Assembly (NCBI RefSeq): GCF_011045215.1
Contig: NZ_CP049201.1
Strand: one strand, 5' to 3'
Length of the DNA: 64,000 bases
Source: Escherichia coli
Lineage (GTDB): Bacteria > Pseudomonadota > Gammaproteobacteria > Enterobacterales > Enterobacteriaceae
In this document: positions 6,001 through 12,000 of the stretch, one piece after another
How positions within the stretch are numbered: the stretch's first letter is position 1
Layout: each line of letters begins with the position of its first letter
Program-made: the position numbers

Positions 6001-9000
6001 AGGCAGATGCTGCGCGGGGAAGAAAACCCTGCTCGGGTGCTAAAGGTGGTATTTCACACTGCACGTCAGACGGACGTTTTGTCTGCAATGACGGAAGTCT
6101 GAGTCAGTCGAAGCGCTTTTGTTCCGGTTATGGCGTGGCACCCGACAAACGTCAGGTGGAATCACCGGTCACCACGAAGCCGGTTCAGAAGAAAAAATCA
6201 GCGGCTGTCCGGAAGGTGTCACAACCGTCGGTGGCCGGGAAAAATGAGGTTGTACCGGTCACTGAACCCCGTAAACCCACCTGTGCGCCGCTTTATATGG
6301 CCAGCAAACCTGGATTTACACATCTGCCCATTTGTTCCGGTAATCAGTATTAATCTGACACTGAAATAGCAGAGAAATCTGTGCTCAGCCTGCAGTTAAT
6401 TCTGTACTGGTGGGCATCATAAAGCCGGACAGCCTTCCGGGTATAAATATTTCCGGAGGGCGTTAATCAAAGATATTCAGTTACTGAGAAGGAAAATAAA
6501 GGAAAGTCATGGCAGGAAGAAAAAAAGATGATAATGCAGCGGGATTTGTTCTGATTTTAGTTTGCGTTATTCTCTGGGGGATTTATGTGGCGGTCAGGGC
6601 GCTGATAAATCTTAATGAGCGCTTTATTGATGCAGTATCGAATCCGGCAGGTATTATTGGTTTGTTTTTGGGTTTGCTTACTGTATTTGCAATTTTACTT
6701 CGTTTTTTTATTTACCGGAGACTCAGAAAGAAAACAGCAGCCTTTGAGCAGGCCGTTTCAGAGCTGGTTCAGAGAGAACGGGGTTTTAATGAAACTGTCA
6801 ATGCCGCGATAGCCCGGGGAATACGACAGGAAAAGGAGCAACTAGCCAGACGTCGTGAGGATTTCATACCGCCAGACAGAAGGCCAGCCGTGCAATGCAA
6901 CGGATTGTTGATTCCGCTTGGAAATTTAAGGCGAAGACTCTGCTGGCTGGTGTAACGATTAATAACTGGCAAAGCAAATATGACCAGCTTCGTAAGGAAA
7001 GAGAGGCTTACGCTGCTGTCAGTGAGAAAATTGCCTTTCTTAACCTGGAAGATAATTCTGACTGGGAGAGTGTCAGGCAACAGTTTCTGGACAAAGTGGC
7101 GTTGCTGGAAAAAGCGCAGGAAGAAAAGGAATATCAGGCAGAGCTTAAGCGTCAGATGCGTGAAGAAAAAGAGCGTCAGGATGAACTTGACCGGCGCCAG
7201 CGGGAAGCGGAAGAGGAAGAGCGGCGTCTTGCCGAGCAGCAGAAACTGATTGAAGAGGCGCTGCGTGCCGCAGAAGGGGCTCACAGGGAGGAGCTGGAGA
7301 AACAACGCCTGGCGCTGGAACAGAAAATTCAGGAAGCGCATGCGCAGTACGAACGTGCTAAATCCATGGCTCAGCTTACGAAACAGGGGCATGTTTATAT
7401 CATTTCGAATATTGGTTCGTTTGGTGAGGATGTCTTTAAAATTGGCATGACCCGACGGCTGGAACCCATGGACAGGGTCAAAGAGTTAAGTGGTGCTTCT
7501 GTTCCGTTTGATTTTGATGTTCACGCCATGATTTCCTGTGATGATGCGCCTGCGCTGGAAAAAACACTTCATGACAGTCTGGAAAAATACCGCATTAACA
7601 GGATTAACCTGCGTAAAGAATTTTTCCGCGTGAAGCTTGAGAAAATCATTAATGAAGTGGAGCGTCACCACGGGCAGGTGGAATATGTGGCTGACCCGGC
7701 GGCGCTGCAGTACCTGCAGAGTCTGGAGTGCGCGGAAAATGAAGCTGCCTGACAATCAGTGTTCTGATTTTATTCCGGCCGGATATAACAGAAGGGATAT
7801 CTGCACATATCCTGCAGCATGGTTCACGGTATTCCGGTCATGTTAATGATTCTGTTTTTTATTTCTGAATAAAACGACACCCACGATATAACGTCGTGGG
7901 TGTCGGTGGTGATTATTTTTTTGTTCACAGATTAAGGTGCGTTTATGGCGAAACTGATAAATGTATCGGCGTCCACTGAGGAGAGAATGACGCCAGGGGA
8001 GAGGAGGGTGGCTTCACGACTGGAGAGCTTTCTGCATGATGACTGCCTTGTCTGGTACGATATCCCGGTGGGACGGAAAAACCGACATCCGGATTTTGTC
8101 ATTATTGACCCGGATAACGGGCTGGTATTTCTGGAGGTCAAGGACTGGACTGTATCCACATTACGTAAAGCAAATCAGGAGCAGGTTACACTGGAAACCG
8201 ACGGTCTTCTGAAATCAGAAATAAATCCGCTGGTACAGGTTCGTCGTTATGCCTGTGATACGGTTAATGCCTTACCTGCTGACCCGTGCTTACGGCAGAA
8301 TGACGGTCAGTATAAGGGACGGCTGAACCTGGCCTGGGCGTATGGTGTGGTGTTTACCCGCATTACCCGTCAGCAACTGAAGGCACTGACAGGGAATGAT
8401 GAGAATGCGGTGGAAAAGATTTTTCCTTCAGCACAGACAATCTGTCAGGATGAAATGACGCAGTCTGTTTTACCTGAGGTATTCCGGCAAAAAATTGCCG
8501 GGATGTTTACCACGGGGTTCAGAACCCGGGTGACACCCCGGATGAGAGATATTCTGCGCGCCCATCTGTTTCCTGAAGTGACCGTGAAACAGAACTCACA
8601 AATCAAAATCATGGATATTCAGCAGGAGATTCTGGCCAGAAATATAGGTGACGGGCATCGTGTCATTCATGGTGTGGCCGGTTCCGGAAAAACCATGATT
8701 CTTTTGTTCCGTTGCCTTTACCTGGCTGAAACCACGTCCGGAAAGATTCTGGTGTTGTGCTACAACATTACCCTGGCCAGCTATCTGCGGGAATGCATTG
8801 AGGCCAGAGGGCTGAGGTCACGGGTTACGGTATCTCATTTTCACAGCTGGTGTGCCTCAATGGCAAAACGCCACGGTATTCAGGTGACGGCAGACAGAAA
8901 AGAATATCCTGAGAAATGCTTCAGTGCATTGGAAGAGGCCGTGAACAGCGGAAAAATCACCCAAACCGGATATGATGCTGTACTGGTGGATGAAGGGCAT

Positions 9001-12000
9001 GATTTTGACAGTCGCTGGCTGGCCCTGATTGCCCGTCTGTTTGATAACGCATCCCGTTCACTGCTCCTGATGTACGATGATGCCCAGTCCATTTACCGAC
9101 GGGAGCGGGCCCTGAACTTTTCTCTGGCCAGTGTGGGGATTCAGGCGCAGGGACGCACTTCTGTCCTGCCGGTCAATTACCGTAATCCGAAACGCATTCT
9201 GCACTTTGCTTATGCATTCTCCCGCGAGTATTTTGAAAAACATCAGAACCGTGAAATACCACTCGTTCAGCCACAGGCGGGTGGTGAAGAGGGCACAGAG
9301 CCGGAAATCCTGCGTTGTGCTTCTGAACGTGATGAAGCCAGACAGGTTGCAGACTGGCTGGAGAAACGCCATGCCCTGTGCGGTCACTGGAGTGATATGG
9401 CTGTTCTGTGTCCGGCAGAGTTTTCAGTGAAACAACTGAAAGAGGTTATGACACAACGCGGGATACCTTTTGCCACCTGCTTTGACAGTGAAGGTAAGAA
9501 GACATACTCGCGACGTAAGGATGTGGTGCATTTACTGACGTACCAGAGCAGCAAGGGGCTGGAGTTCCCGTATGTGGCAGTTATCAATGCGTCTTTCGTT
9601 CACTCTGGTGCAGCGGATGAGTCTGAAGTGATTCCGGTGCTTTATGTGGCGTTTACCCGGGCAACCCGTGAATTACTGGTGACCTGTTACCGTGAAAACA
9701 GTATCAGCCGCCACCTTGAGGATTTTGCATAATACCGGATTATTTCTTTATTCCGGGCTTTCACCATACTGTTATTATCAGGTTTATTTAATTCGCCATG
9801 AACCCGTTATTTAACGATATTCAGATGCGTCTTTTTTATCTGAACCACTCTCCGTACTCCTGGCACTGGAATGTCAGATTCAGACCTCAGGAAGCCGTAT
9901 ATATTGGCAACGATACCTGTCATATCACCATTACCTGTAATCAGTCAGGTTTTCATTTAACCCGGGACGGACAACGGCTGTTCACTGAGCGTTATATCAG
10001 AAACCTTAATGAGCTGTTACCGGTTCTGAAACGGCGGTGGGATGTGACACCGGCAATCATCCGTGCAGTGGAATACCTTTCCCGGGTCCCGGTATCACAC
10101 TGACATTCTTTCCGTAACTGTTAATCATGATTTAATACAGCAACACTGAATCTGCCGATGACTTCTGAAGTGAAACTGAAAACCGGTGGTGACCCCCGGT
10201 CATTACCGGATTATACTGCCCTACGTGATGAAATCAGCAAACTGACCCACCCGGCACGCCCGGATGTGGACTGGCGTTATGTGGAAACACTCTGCCTGCG
10301 TCTGTATGAACACAATGGCGTGGAATTACAGACGGCATCCTGGTACACCATCGCCCGGATGCATACAGCAGGGTTAAGTGGCCTGAATGAAGGGCTGGCT
10401 CTGATTGTGGCGCTGACCCGGCATCACTGGTCAGTGATGTGGCCGCTGAATACCCACGCCCGGCTGGAAATTATTACCGGTCTGTTCAACCGTCTGCAAA
10501 AAACGCTCCGGGCCATGCCACCGGATAACCGTGACAACCTGCCTCAGCTGTATCAGACCGAAACATTCCTGAAGGTACTGAGTGACATATTTATCCGACA
10601 TGAGCTGAAGCAAAACAGCCGGCTGGTGTTACTGGAAAACATGGTGAAGGGATATATCATTCGTCTGGAGAATCAGCCTTTACAGGGGGATGATTCGTCC
10701 CCGGTAACGCTTCCTGCTCAGGCACTCCGGTCTGATGCACCGGATGTGCAGGAACATCAGACCCTGCCGCACTCCCGTCTGGTGTATATTGTTTCTGAAA
10801 CAAAAGCAGAACCCTCCCCCTCCCTTCAAAAGTCTTCACCCACGTTTCTGAAACCGTTTGTGGCTGGTGTCTGTGCGGCATTGCTGGCTGTCAGCATGGC
10901 CATTCCGGGATGGCAGTTTCTGACACAGCCATCACCGGCGGAGCAGCAACTCAGGGCGCTGCTGACCCCCCCACCGGATGTGCTTTCAGCAGACCAGATG
11001 ACACAGCTCAGCAGAATACCCTCACTGTTAAATCATGTGTCAGAGTGGATACCCCTTTCCGGTCAGCAGATAACGCGACTGACAGAACTACCGCCGGCAT
11101 ACAACCTGCAACGCAGTGCGCAGCTGCTGCAGCAACTGATGGTGCTTTTTCCCGATAATCCCCGTGTCCAGGAAATGGTGGATAACTGGCAGAAGAGTGT
11201 AATGAGCCGTGCGCTCCCGGAAGAGGCGATGACGGGCTGGAACGAAGGTATGACCCGCTTACAGCAGCTGGCTGAGCGCCTGAACCGTCTGGATGAACAG
11301 CGGGGAAAATACATAACGGTCAGTGAACTGAAAACGGAGGTGTTTGGCATCATGCAGGCTTTTAACCGGCATATCCCGGCAGAAGAGCAGTTACGTCGCT
11401 ATGGCGAAGCCCGCAACCAGAATGGCAGTGAACAGCAGCAAAAACAGGCTGAAATGGCGCTGAATCAGTTGATTAACCGTTATCAGATGGAACACACAGG
11501 CAATCAGGAGGGGCAGCCATAATGGCTGATTAGATAGGGTAATGTAAAATAATGCAACAATAACGTTTACACAATAAGGTGTAAGCTGAAATTAACTCGT
11601 TCGTGGAATAACCTAATGAGTAAGGTTCTGCTACTTTGAGTTGGATAAGTTATATAGAACAGCAGTCCTGATAGTCAGAAAGAGTTTTTTCTGGGGTGTA
11701 TTTTTATAGGGTGTTAATCTGGTATTTAATTAAAAGACGGAGTTATTTATACTGACATATCAAATAAATAATTTTTAACGACTTTTCTATTTGGCTGATT
11801 GTTTTGCGTTCTTTTTATAAGGTGTTTTATTTTTAAAGGTTTTTTGATGAGATTACATAGTCTTAAAATAAAAGGATTTAAACGTATCCAAACTGCAAGA
11901 GATAATATTTGGTGATACCACGTTTCTCATTGGTGCTAATAATGCCGGTAAAAGTTCTGTTCTGAAGGCCGTTGAATGGCTGCTTTCAGATAAAAAGAAG

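Follow-up and report, generated by a model that had tools for sequence, protein, structure and literature searches.

A T6SS-linked accessory cassette of Escherichia coli with a disrupted SNIPE-like gene and an intact NERD-UvrD candidate defence gene

The phage defence protein PD-lambda-1 comes from the screen of Vassallo et al. in 2022. Since renamed SNIPE, it is a single-protein, membrane-bound GIY-YIG nuclease that cuts phage DNA during injection, and in its canonical form it needs the DUF4041 domain (bioRxiv 10.1101/2025.11.03.685801). NERD domains are reported to be enriched in defence islands (PMC9226505), and the combination ‘NERD+UvrD’ has been listed as C3a187, a cluster that may be accessory to type III CRISPR-Cas [Shah et al., 2018 (PMC6546367; PADLOC PDLC01087)]. 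Nhi and Nhi-like proteins are single multifunctional enzymes that degrade phage replication intermediates (PMC11084316, PMC10952713).

In a 64,000-nucleotide stretch of the E. coli contig NZ_CP049201.1 (the window), a gene of the SNIPE/PD-lambda-1 family and a NERD-UvrD fusion gene make up, with a gene for a small exported protein, an accessory cassette. The cassette is old and sits at the 3′ end of a T6SS-1 (sci-1-type) cluster, between tssE and orf101/tagA (Table 1). We read the cassette, with a probability of about 0.6, as two independent single-gene defence-type modules plus the small exported protein, and as neither a two-component system nor part of the T6SS. The tssE gene, the frameshifted T5orf172 gene, the NERD-helicase gene and the VasL-like gene are all where the original prediction had placed them. 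The two genes it put between tssE and the VasL-like gene are present, but it had missed the 133-aa protein gene and orf101.

Table 1. Features of the cassette and its flanks (positions in the window).
Feature	Position	Strand	Evidence or remark
tssE, last core T6SS gene, left flank	5364..5795	+	NCBIfam TIGR03357, E = 3.8e-26, above cutoff
Accessory cassette, roughly 4.0 kb	5782..9797	.	blastn vs L001, chimeric empty-site query, loci L005/L006, junction alignments
133-aa Cys-containing protein, YdcA/PRK10040-like, first cassette gene	5952..6353	+	
SNIPE/PD-lambda-1-family gene, pseudogene here	6509..7752	+	ORFs 6509-6955 and 6895-7752
Frameshift site, one A missing, codon 118 (GAA/GAG in intact alleles)	6860..6862	+	alignment to intact alleles
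T5orf172 (GIY-YIG-like) nuclease domain of SNIPE-like gene	7387..7665	+	Pfam T5orf172/MUG113, intact allele aa 294-386
13-bp G+C-rich hairpin in SNIPE/NERD-UvrD spacer	7875..7905	.	terminator scan; fold z-score -5.4
NERD (PD-D/ExK) nuclease + UvrD-type SF1A helicase fusion, intact, 595 aa	7945..9732	+	
NERD nuclease domain	7993..8268	+	Pfam PF08378
Compact SF1A helicase core of NERD-UvrD	8602..9714	+	Pfam + conserved motifs
orf101, 101-aa hypothetical protein, right cassette flank	9798..10103	+	
tagA-like T6SS accessory gene (ImpA_N + VasL), intact, 454 aa	10158..11522	+	

Junction alignments show that homology to the empty site stops at about 5781, a few codons upstream of the tssE stop. Neither a target-site duplication nor a recombinase gene was found at the ends or in the content of the cassette. 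In its place, 37 E. coli genomes have a 96-bp spacer after tssE, and then orf101 and tagA; orf101, being present in these genomes, is T6SS backbone and lies outside the cassette. The tagA-like gene has an ImpA_N/TssA-type N-terminus (NCBIfam), and its orthologues are annotated ImpA_N + VasL (Pfam on the L087 orthologue; RefSeq annotations). The 133-aa protein has a hydrophobic, signal-peptide-like N-terminus and matches NCBIfam NF007462 across aa 1-58 (E = 1.9e-24) as well as phrog_6000; an identical copy occurs on 143 contigs with source names E. coli.

The SNIPE-like gene matches the PADLOC PD-Lambda-1 models (PDLC03976, E = 5.8e-88; PDLC03977, E = 2.1e-84) and, over its full length, phrog_8430 (E = 1.6e-129). 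The view that the pairing is not a named system therefore needs qualifying: its first gene alone corresponds to a named single-gene system, PD-lambda-1, now SNIPE (PADLOC; bioRxiv 10.1101/2025.11.03.685801). An intact allele encodes 414 residues (WP_000897032.1). Two hydrophobic segments (aa 12-30 and 47-69) lie in its N-terminal part, and an E/K/R/Q-rich, coiled-coil central region stands between these and the nuclease. As in SNIPE, an N-terminal anchor is followed by a long helical region and a C-terminal T5orf172/GIY-YIG domain, which keeps the catalytic-type residues VYI...KIG...R...KEFF (columns invariant in alignment A6). The two-TM form seen here accounts for 7% of described SNIPE homologues. 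Unlike SNIPE, the window variant has a shorter N-terminal region and a frameshift, and Pfam detects no DUF4041 in it; about 60 residues of DUF4041 are missing relative to a DUF4041-bearing homologue. Since canonical SNIPE depends on DUF4041, which is reduced here, this variant may act differently from SNIPE even as an intact allele.

The NERD-UvrD gene is a single intact ORF, in which Pfam places NERD (17-108) ahead of UvrD-helicase/AAA_19/UvrD_C/UvrD_C_2. The start at 7945 is supported by the conservation of M1-A2, kept in at least 90% of 42 homologues. Within NERD, E19 is kept in 39/42 of these, D50 in 42/42, E64 in 40/42 and K66 in 37/42. The helicase motifs are invariant in the family: Walker A GVAGSGKT, DEGHDF, Q381 of motif III, R413 of motif IV and T571-R572 of motif VI. 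The AlphaFold model (pLDDT 89) has UvrD, PcrA and Rep as its top PDB matches. The protein matches the PADLOC C3a187 model end to end (E = 2.5e-141, aa 1-594 against 1-556 of 559) with identical domain architecture. It differs from C3a187, itself putative in function, in having no cas gene among the window neighbours inspected. The dN/dS ratio is 0.16-0.19, one comparison being with a SNIPE-lacking lineage. The hairpin upstream has a T-run 9 nt after it and is a possible terminator or pause element; it accompanies NERD-UvrD where SNIPE is absent, and homology to AR_0118 begins at 7855.

The expectation that both genes are defence-like agrees with these PADLOC matches for the first gene and with the neighbourhoods of homologues for the second. 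Among 20 immediate neighbours of NERD-UvrD homologues, eight have PADLOC matches at E < 1e-8 (SIR2 twice, OLD, DRT4, a type I REase, PDC-S05, a PD-T4-6-like kinase and HNH), a fraction biased upward, as the 20 were hand-picked for being close, co-oriented and of low R/G/P/A content. Other homologues adjoin a kinase in Ralstonia and a methylase on a Vibrio plasmid. No experiment tying a protein of the NERD-UvrD family to phage or plasmid defence was found in the searchable literature. NERD-UvrD is an intact candidate defence gene, from a large family of solitary genes, and one that can be tested.

The frameshift of the SNIPE-like gene, expected in 6856-6895, lies next to 6861, where GAGGAATTT of the intact alleles reads GAGGATTT. 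With membrane anchor and nuclease uncoupled by this 1-nt deletion, the gene in the window is most likely dead. A sequencing or assembly error in a gene that is really intact is the less likely explanation, although it deserves some weight: one base is lost from an AA dinucleotide, the repaired gene has a dN/dS of 0.14 with no visible relaxation of constraint, the OLD-family gene carries another private 1-nt indel (~11897) and hsdR is also split. However, indels are rare in the window sequence (three in 9.7 kb against strain C5, the sole one within coding sequence being this frameshift), and decay of the gene is seen elsewhere. E. coli 55989 has an independent A7-to-A6 frameshift, and tblastn finds a SNIPE deletion remnant upstream of NERD-UvrD in Cedecea neteri L007. 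Together with the window, these make at least three lineages with separate disruptions of the SNIPE gene, while NERD-UvrD remains intact. End-loading helicase-nucleases such as RecBCD and AddAB often act after endonucleolytic cuts, and the two proteins of the cassette could cooperate in this way, the membrane nuclease nicking or cutting incoming DNA and the helicase-nuclease loading on the ends to destroy the genome. Such cooperation would fit the shared orientation of the genes, the Cedecea neteri remnant and their adjacency in 139 of the 141 E. coli genomes that carry this SNIPE allele, but we consider it very improbable. No SNIPE ORF lies within 6 kb of NERD-UvrD in any of 80 homologous loci from other taxa, and by tblastn 79 of the 80 have no SNIPE homologue, the L007 remnant being the one exception; nor was a recurrent partner found (clustering of 341 flanking ORFs gave 289 groups of at most six members). 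A NERD-UvrD match over at least 80% of the query is found in 614 of 5426 E. coli genomes searched, whereas the junction with SNIPE is present in 139, so that in about 475 NERD-UvrD persists, intact and under purifying selection, with no SNIPE. IncF plasmids carry a solitary copy (93% DNA and 94% protein identity) beside genes for a RelE/ParE toxin and a recombinase. Canonical SNIPE was cloned and studied by itself, its near homologues in phages phiP27 and PhiR26_1 have no helicase neighbour, and the strong hairpin separates the two genes here. The two genes do not form a conserved pair; they are neighbours by shared descent with the T6SS cluster.

That neither gene belongs to the T6SS core is borne out by orthologous clusters: besides the 37 empty-site E. 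coli genomes, those of Rahnella, Pantoea ananatis and Enterobacter lack the cassette and have tagA directly after tssE or after an unrelated ORF of about 157 aa. The cassette is no T6SS part, yet its insertion into the locus was not recent. The nearest NERD-UvrD homologues (59-65% identity, within the 44-81% range of the flanking T6SS proteins) occupy the tssE-tagA slot in Cedecea neteri L007, in L087 and in Pantoea vagans L090; from this shared slot and the SNIPE remnant it follows that the cassette has long travelled with the T6SS cluster as an old resident. The same slot, common to Escherichia, two Cedecea genomes and Pantoea vagans, could instead mark NERD-UvrD as a genuine T6SS accessory, for example in repair after DNase-effector attack or in processing of prey DNA rather than against phage. 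The T6SS-linked proteins group in a clade apart (58-72% identity among themselves, 46% or less to any other), in Cedecea and Pantoea the NERD-UvrD stop codon and the start of tagA overlap, and an EAEC preprint describes RfaH/ops-dependent transcription through an ‘accessory operon’ with EC042_4547-4549, which we infer to be cassette genes. This role is nonetheless hardly likely, given the clusters without the cassette. Plasmid records with a tagA homologue (103) far outnumber the roughly 12 Enterobacterales plasmid records with NERD-UvrD, T6SS linkage is missing in 79/80 loci in the rest of the family, Pfam finds no secretion-associated domain in the protein, and the E. coli gene has reached IncF plasmids without its neighbours, apart from 22 nt of orf101. 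A housekeeping or repair helicase-nuclease with coincidental defence neighbours is a slightly better candidate, though still improbable. Among solved structures it is closest to UvrD, PcrA and Rep, all of them repair helicases. Some family members have fixed chromosomal sites in ordinary surroundings: the gene of the Klebsiella pneumoniae complex has such a site at very high prevalence, the K. pneumoniae copy, found on at least 1000 contigs, adjoins fosA, and the Ralstonia solanacearum copy is matched in 114 plasmid-database records. Against this, the gene is patchy in E. coli (near-full-length in just the 614 genomes), frequently truncated by IS elements and plasmid-borne, and its neighbourhoods are extremely variable, with SIR2, OLD, DRT or RM genes repeatedly adjoining homologues.

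On the preferred reading of two independent modules, the membrane anchor of the SNIPE-like protein would tether its GIY-YIG nuclease to the inner membrane and so let it cut phage DNA during injection, a mechanism carried over by analogy to this divergent variant with two TM segments and a reduced DUF4041. NERD-UvrD would most likely act as a stand-alone, ATP-driven 3′-5′ SF1A translocase. It would engage foreign or aberrant DNA, at ends or replication intermediates, and its N-terminal PD-(D/E)xK nuclease would then degrade this DNA. An immune role is suggested for it because the catalytic motifs are intact, the gene is under purifying selection and defence genes occur in the neighbourhoods.

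Several described enzymes share parts of this design. The helicase core partly matches GajB of Gabija (E about 5e-21; also PDB GajB), and an OLD-family gene lies 2.2 kb downstream of NERD-UvrD; however, the nuclease is fused to the helicase in NERD-UvrD whereas GajA is separate, and the OLD gene lies beyond orf101 and tagA, is frameshifted and has ‘Old’, not GajA, as its best PADLOC model. It is also missing from most genomes that carry NERD-UvrD. RecB and AddA likewise join an SF1 helicase to a nuclease within one polypeptide, but their PD-(D/E)xK nuclease is C-terminal and they work in multi-subunit complexes. SLFN11 and SLFN14 are among the fold matches and have the same order of N-terminal nuclease and C-terminal helicase, although the likeness to these Schlafens is confined to the helicase fold. 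Nhi helicases are Upf1-like SF1B enzymes, whereas that of NERD-UvrD is of the UvrD/SF1A type (Pfam, PDB sequence and fold), and no Nhi model is among its best 25 PADLOC matches. Like Nhi, NERD-UvrD unites a nuclease and an SF1 helicase in one polypeptide encoded by a stand-alone gene, and the Nhi-like system is listed with a NERD domain. In the mode of action proposed above, NERD-UvrD would be a functional analogue of such single-protein nuclease-helicase immunity.

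The window opens with 11.5 kb of an E. coli T6SS-1-type cluster, its 3' half, and every element of the original prediction is present in it, a SNIPE-like gene (SNIPE/PD-lambda-1 family) and a NERD-UvrD gene lying between tssE and a tagA-like gene. Compared with strain NY1601, homology runs to position 5781 and resumes at 9798; the interval measures 4.0 kb in the window and 96 bp in NY1601. A chimeric query joining the two flanks of this cassette identifies the empty site (the tssE-orf101 junction) in 37 E. coli genomes, among them strain MEW, where the order tssM-tssA-tssF-tssG-tssJ-tssE is the same as in the window cluster. 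In the junction alignments the replacement begins a few codons before the tssE stop codon and ends exactly at the orf101 ATG, with no target-site duplication or repeats seen at the cassette ends. The whole arrangement, cassette within T6SS cluster, is found in at least 94 genomes. tagA lies 12 bp after tssE in Rahnella and 327 bp after it in Pantoea ananatis, and in Enterobacter it follows tssE after an unrelated, conserved ORF of ~157 aa. Plasmid records with a tagA homologue number 103, against ~12 Enterobacterales plasmid records with NERD-UvrD. The empty sites, the genera without the cassette and the plasmid counts together indicate that the cassette, which is present only in a subset of clusters (E. 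coli, Cedecea, Pantoea vagans), is dispensable cargo and not core to this T6SS subtype. The proposal of a defence-type islet distinct from the secretion core is upheld.

Features of the T6SS cluster, its cassette and the downstream region (window positions unless a locus is named)
Feature	Position	Basis or remark
tssA	294-1892	ORF list, 95%-identical RefSeq-annotated locus, homology to Cedecea cluster
tssF	2026-3789	as tssA
tssG	3744-4844	as tssA
tssJ	4825-5361	as tssA
tssE	5364-5795	as tssA, and TssE model match above its cutoff
133-aa protein, signal-peptide-like N-terminus	5952-6353	directly 3' of tssE
SNIPE-like gene	6509-6955 + 6895-7752	two overlapping ORFs
NERD-UvrD, 595 aa	7945-9732	single intact ORF; Pfam NERD aa 17-108 and UvrD-type helicase domains
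orf101, 101 aa	9798-10103	between NERD-UvrD and tagA-like gene
tagA-like accessory gene, ImpA_N/VasL, 454 aa	10158-11522	
OLD-family ATPase/Toprim nuclease gene	11848-13662	PADLOC 'Old' E=1.7e-50; low-GC block 0.33-0.39
IS21 and IS4 transposases	17589-20750	
Type I RM locus	21656-31182	hsdR split 21656-23617 + 23720-25072; then hsdM, hsdS, 1093-aa helicase-like ORF
PDC-S08 match	33098-33733	E=2.4e-81
~157-aa tagA-associated protein	L087 7461-7940; L099 3423-3893; L100 5455-5925	

The islet is ancient and not a new insertion. Among the matches listed, the closest homologues of the E. coli NERD-UvrD protein (59-65% identity) occupy the same slot in Cedecea neteri, in a second Cedecea genome (L087) and on the Pantoea vagans megaplasmid pVag1, all others being at most 46% identical; in two of these three loci the NERD-UvrD stop codon overlaps the tagA start. 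Between E. coli and Cedecea, NERD-UvrD is 65% identical, and the identities of the flanking T6SS proteins span this value (TssF 81%, TssE 75%, TssG 72%, TssJ 58%, TagA 44%). Cedecea neteri also retains a remnant of SNIPE between tssE and NERD-UvrD, in which residues 182-203 are fused to 367-414 (73% identity). The shared slot, the matching divergence and the remnant place the SNIPE/NERD-UvrD pair in this position before these clusters diverged.

Several further features of the cluster were recorded. The T6SS cores of the two Cedecea genomes are 85-96% identical (TssF 96%), yet their NERD-UvrD proteins are only 64% and their TagA proteins 48% identical; in this cluster the 3' module evolves, or is swapped, at a much higher rate than the core. 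Synonymous divergence of window 2026-10103 from an EAEC-like locus (L002) changes sharply from gene to gene, being 0.014 for tssF, 0.06 for SNIPE, 0.10 for tssE, 0.12 for NERD-UvrD and 0.30 for orf101; recombination has made the T6SS locus a mosaic whose 3' end is the more divergent. Strain C5 (L101) carries an IS110 element after NERD-UvrD, and the 3' end of NERD-UvrD, orf101 and the tagA fragments are partly duplicated in tandem there (13897-16854). tagA is a single ORF in the window and three annotated pseudogene pieces in many RefSeq E. coli genomes. The ~157-aa hypothetical protein adjoins tagA, before or after it, in the L087, Enterobacter and Rahnella clusters (47-57% identity), has no PADLOC match and probably represents a T6SS accessory gene that lacks a name; in E. 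coli the unrelated orf101 takes its place.

The two cassette genes had been proposed to act as a pair, which their distribution contradicts. The SNIPE allele is found in 141 E. coli genomes and the SNIPE/NERD-UvrD junction in 139, whereas NERD-UvrD (at least 80% query coverage) is found in 614, leaving ~475 without SNIPE, usually where IS elements have removed the T6SS genes upstream. IncF plasmids carry a lone NERD-UvrD copy (93% DNA identity, 94% protein) with a RelE/ParE toxin gene and a recombinase as its neighbours; 22 nt of orf101 remain attached to it, which points to a chromosomal origin. In several hundred E. coli genomes, many of them O157:H7 or other STEC, only the first ~800 bp of the gene (the NERD part) are kept, cut by an IS66 element. 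Across 80 NERD-UvrD loci drawn from among the matches listed (at least 80 exist) in gamma- and betaproteobacteria, cyanobacteria and Chloroflexi, 79 have no SNIPE homologue within 6 kb; phmmer against all ORFs of these loci detects no SNIPE ORF, and tblastn detects one remnant, in the T6SS-linked Cedecea locus only. No other neighbour recurs in the sample either: the 341 flanking ORFs form 289 clusters, of which the largest has six members, and all-against-all clustering of the ORFs returns only shadow ORFs of NERD-UvrD itself. Co-occurrence across unrelated genomes, as expected of a two-gene system, is thus absent from these 80 listed loci, and we conclude from this sample that the SNIPE-like and NERD-UvrD genes are independent modules, side by side through shared descent.

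The SNIPE-like gene is by itself a member of a named system. It matches the PADLOC PD-Lambda-1 models (E=6e-88 and 2e-84) and, over its full length, the phage family phrog_8430 of PHROGs (E=1.6e-129). PD-lambda-1, now called SNIPE, is a GIY-YIG nuclease anchored in the inner membrane; it cuts phage DNA as this is being injected, and it requires each of the TM segment, DUF4041 and the nuclease (bioRxiv 10.1101/2025.11.03.685801). The intact allele (WP_000897032.1, 414 aa) has T5orf172 (E=1e-16) and MUG113 (E=1e-18) Pfam matches at aa 294-386; intact alleles have two hydrophobic N-terminal segments (aa 12-30 and 47-69) and a charged, helical middle. Pfam detects no DUF4041 in the intact allele at E<=10, and the FNNECDAAI motif and ~60 preceding residues of the DUF4041-bearing PD-lambda-1 protein of phage PhiR26_1 are missing; the PADLOC profile alignment reaches profile position 189, from which a remnant of DUF4041 may be present.

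In the window the nuclease domain is encoded intact at 7387-7665, and Y297, G313, R316 and E371 are invariant in the alignment with homologues. The frameshift predicted within 6856-6895 was located: alignment with two intact alleles, with which strain C5 agrees, reveals that one A is missing beside 6861, at codon 118 (GAGGAATTT to GAGGATTT). Anchor and nuclease are therefore encoded by separate ORFs in different frames, and the gene is, as judged from its sequence, most likely inactive. The repaired gene has a dN/dS of 0.14, so the lesion is recent or an error. Indels are otherwise rare, and the missing A is the only one of three relative to strain C5 in 9.7 kb that falls inside coding sequence. 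With the deletion in Cedecea and an A7-to-A6 frameshift in E. coli 55989, SNIPE has been damaged at least three separate times. The A7 tract is at codons 4-6 (window 6515-6530; A6 in 55989 at L095 4501-4545), is a possible slippage-prone site, and the 55989 frameshift there arose independently; in that strain the RefSeq annotation begins at a later start codon and gives a protein shortened to 400 aa. The downstream ORF of the window gene starts at Met130, 11 nt after a weak AAGG, and its predicted product, if expressed, would be exactly a TM-less SNIPE-like nuclease; the TM-less form of canonical SNIPE is toxic because it cuts host DNA (bioRxiv 10.1101/2025.11.03.685801).

NERD-UvrD, by comparison with its neighbour, has been kept. 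A word-indexed protein search listed 120 matches, all from E. coli, and reached no distant relatives; an exhaustive search of representatives was therefore used, which groups the relatives (E<=1e-30) into 567 clusters at 50% identity, mostly of ~600 aa and aligned over their full length. Aligning 42 of these proteins shows conservation of the PD-(D/E)xK residues (E19 in 39, D50 in all 42, E64 in 40 and K66 in 37), and in every SF1 motif examined the key residues vary little or not at all. Compared with three E. coli lineages, the gene has a dN/dS of 0.16-0.19. The AlphaFold model (pLDDT 89, pTM 0.85) has UvrD, PcrA and Rep as its best solved relatives, with GajB, Schlafen 11/14 and Upf1 next; the search found no solved structure of a NERD-UvrD fusion.

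Genomic context points to a role in defence, with qualifications. Eight of 20 immediate, mostly co-oriented NERD-UvrD neighbours from different loci match PADLOC models at E<1e-8, six of them strongly and at near full length (SIR2 twice, OLD, DRT4/6, type I REase and PDC-S05), although the 20 were hand-picked, which counts against this reading. In Ralstonia the genes after NERD-UvrD encode a PD-T4-6-like kinase and another UvrD-like protein, and on a Vibrio conjugative plasmid it adjoins a DNA methylase. The literature describes NERD-helicases adjoining UG34 reverse transcriptases and enrichment of NERD in defence islands. Against a defence function, NERD-UvrD occupies fixed sites in unremarkable contexts in the Klebsiella pneumoniae and Ralstonia solanacearum complexes. 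The searchable literature holds no functional test of NERD-UvrD and yielded only a listing as C3a187, the UG34-associated NERD-helicases and an unrelated NERD RNase, ZwsA. Taken together, stand-alone nuclease-helicase defence would be the most likely function of NERD-UvrD.

An alternative is that the T6SS-linked clade of NERD-UvrD has a functional tie to the secretion cluster: this DNA-degrading helicase-nuclease would be read through with tagA in an RfaH/ops-dependent manner, be switched on as the T6SS fires and act on the DNA of lysed prey, on incoming mobile elements or on ends made by SNIPE. An EAEC preprint places an RfaH ops element between 'accessory genes EC042_4547 and EC042_4548' and reports RfaH/ops-dependent transcription of a reporter between EC042_4548 and EC042_4549; by gene order, EC042_4547, 4548 and 4549 probably correspond to the SNIPE-like gene, NERD-UvrD and orf101. 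The spacer between the two cassette genes contains a strong hairpin (7875-7905, z = -5.4) that travels with NERD-UvrD. The reporter data and the location of the hairpin fit transcription of tagA through the passenger genes, which the window gene order also makes probable, and leave a small chance of a functional tie to the T6SS. Across the 80 sampled NERD-UvrD loci, T6SS genes lie near the Cedecea one only, and window 5300-12100 has no plus-strand match to the ops element GGTAGNNT. We regard such a tie as improbable; if it were true, contact-dependent killing and nucleic-acid immunity would be joined in one operon. A Ralstonia NERD-UvrD gene 5 kb from a gene annotated only 'type VI secretion protein' was judged coincidental. 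EAEC-lineage genomes carry GGTAGCTT, matching the ops core, at NERD-UvrD codons 21-23, where the window (8007-8014) has the synonymous GGTGGCTT; if this site is the preprint's 'ops2', RfaH-dependent read-through to tagA may differ in the window strain. Through this probable transcription of tagA across the passenger genes, the cassette is also relevant to EAEC T6SS genetics.

Downstream, the T6SS cluster gives way to a defence island in which several genes are broken. Its OLD-family gene has a 1-nt insertion at ~11897 (CTGCAAGAG; strain C5 has CTGCAGAG and an intact ORF of 604 aa), which leaves the listed ORF (12001-13662) without the Walker A region. Reading NERD-UvrD and this gene together as Gabija was rejected, there being no adjacent GajA, two genes intervening and the two not being co-conserved.

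What emerges is a defence cassette inherited inside a T6SS operon across genera, in which the SNIPE-type gene decays repeatedly and its neighbour is kept; the novelty lies in the NERD-UvrD family and in this long residence, and no new kind of system is involved. Work on canonical SNIPE used one protein, cloned by itself, and two-TM proteins form 7% of its described homologues (bioRxiv 10.1101/2025.11.03.685801). The window gene resembles it in the C-terminal T5orf172/GIY-YIG domain with its catalytic residues, and its allele family diverges in having two TM segments and no Pfam DUF4041. NERD-UvrD matches the PADLOC model C3a187 'NERD+UvrD' (PDLC01087) end to end (E=2.5e-141, aa 1-594 against model 1-556/559), a label taken from a catalogue, published in 2018, of proteins whose genes lie near type III CRISPR-cas cassettes (PMC6546367); its annotated neighbours in the window are T6SS genes, SNIPE, orf101, tagA and the OLD-family gene, with no type III cas cassette beside it. 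Its best PADLOC matches are C3a187, GajB, RTasHel, RTasNERD-Hel and AbiO; no Nhi is among the best 25, and its helicase domains are UvrD-type. Like Nhi and Nhi-like proteins it joins a nuclease and a helicase in one polypeptide, and its architecture and motifs are intact. As a widespread ~600-aa fusion often found next to defence genes, the NERD-UvrD family is a testable candidate which, should it protect, would be an SF1A-type counterpart to single-protein nuclease-helicase immunity.
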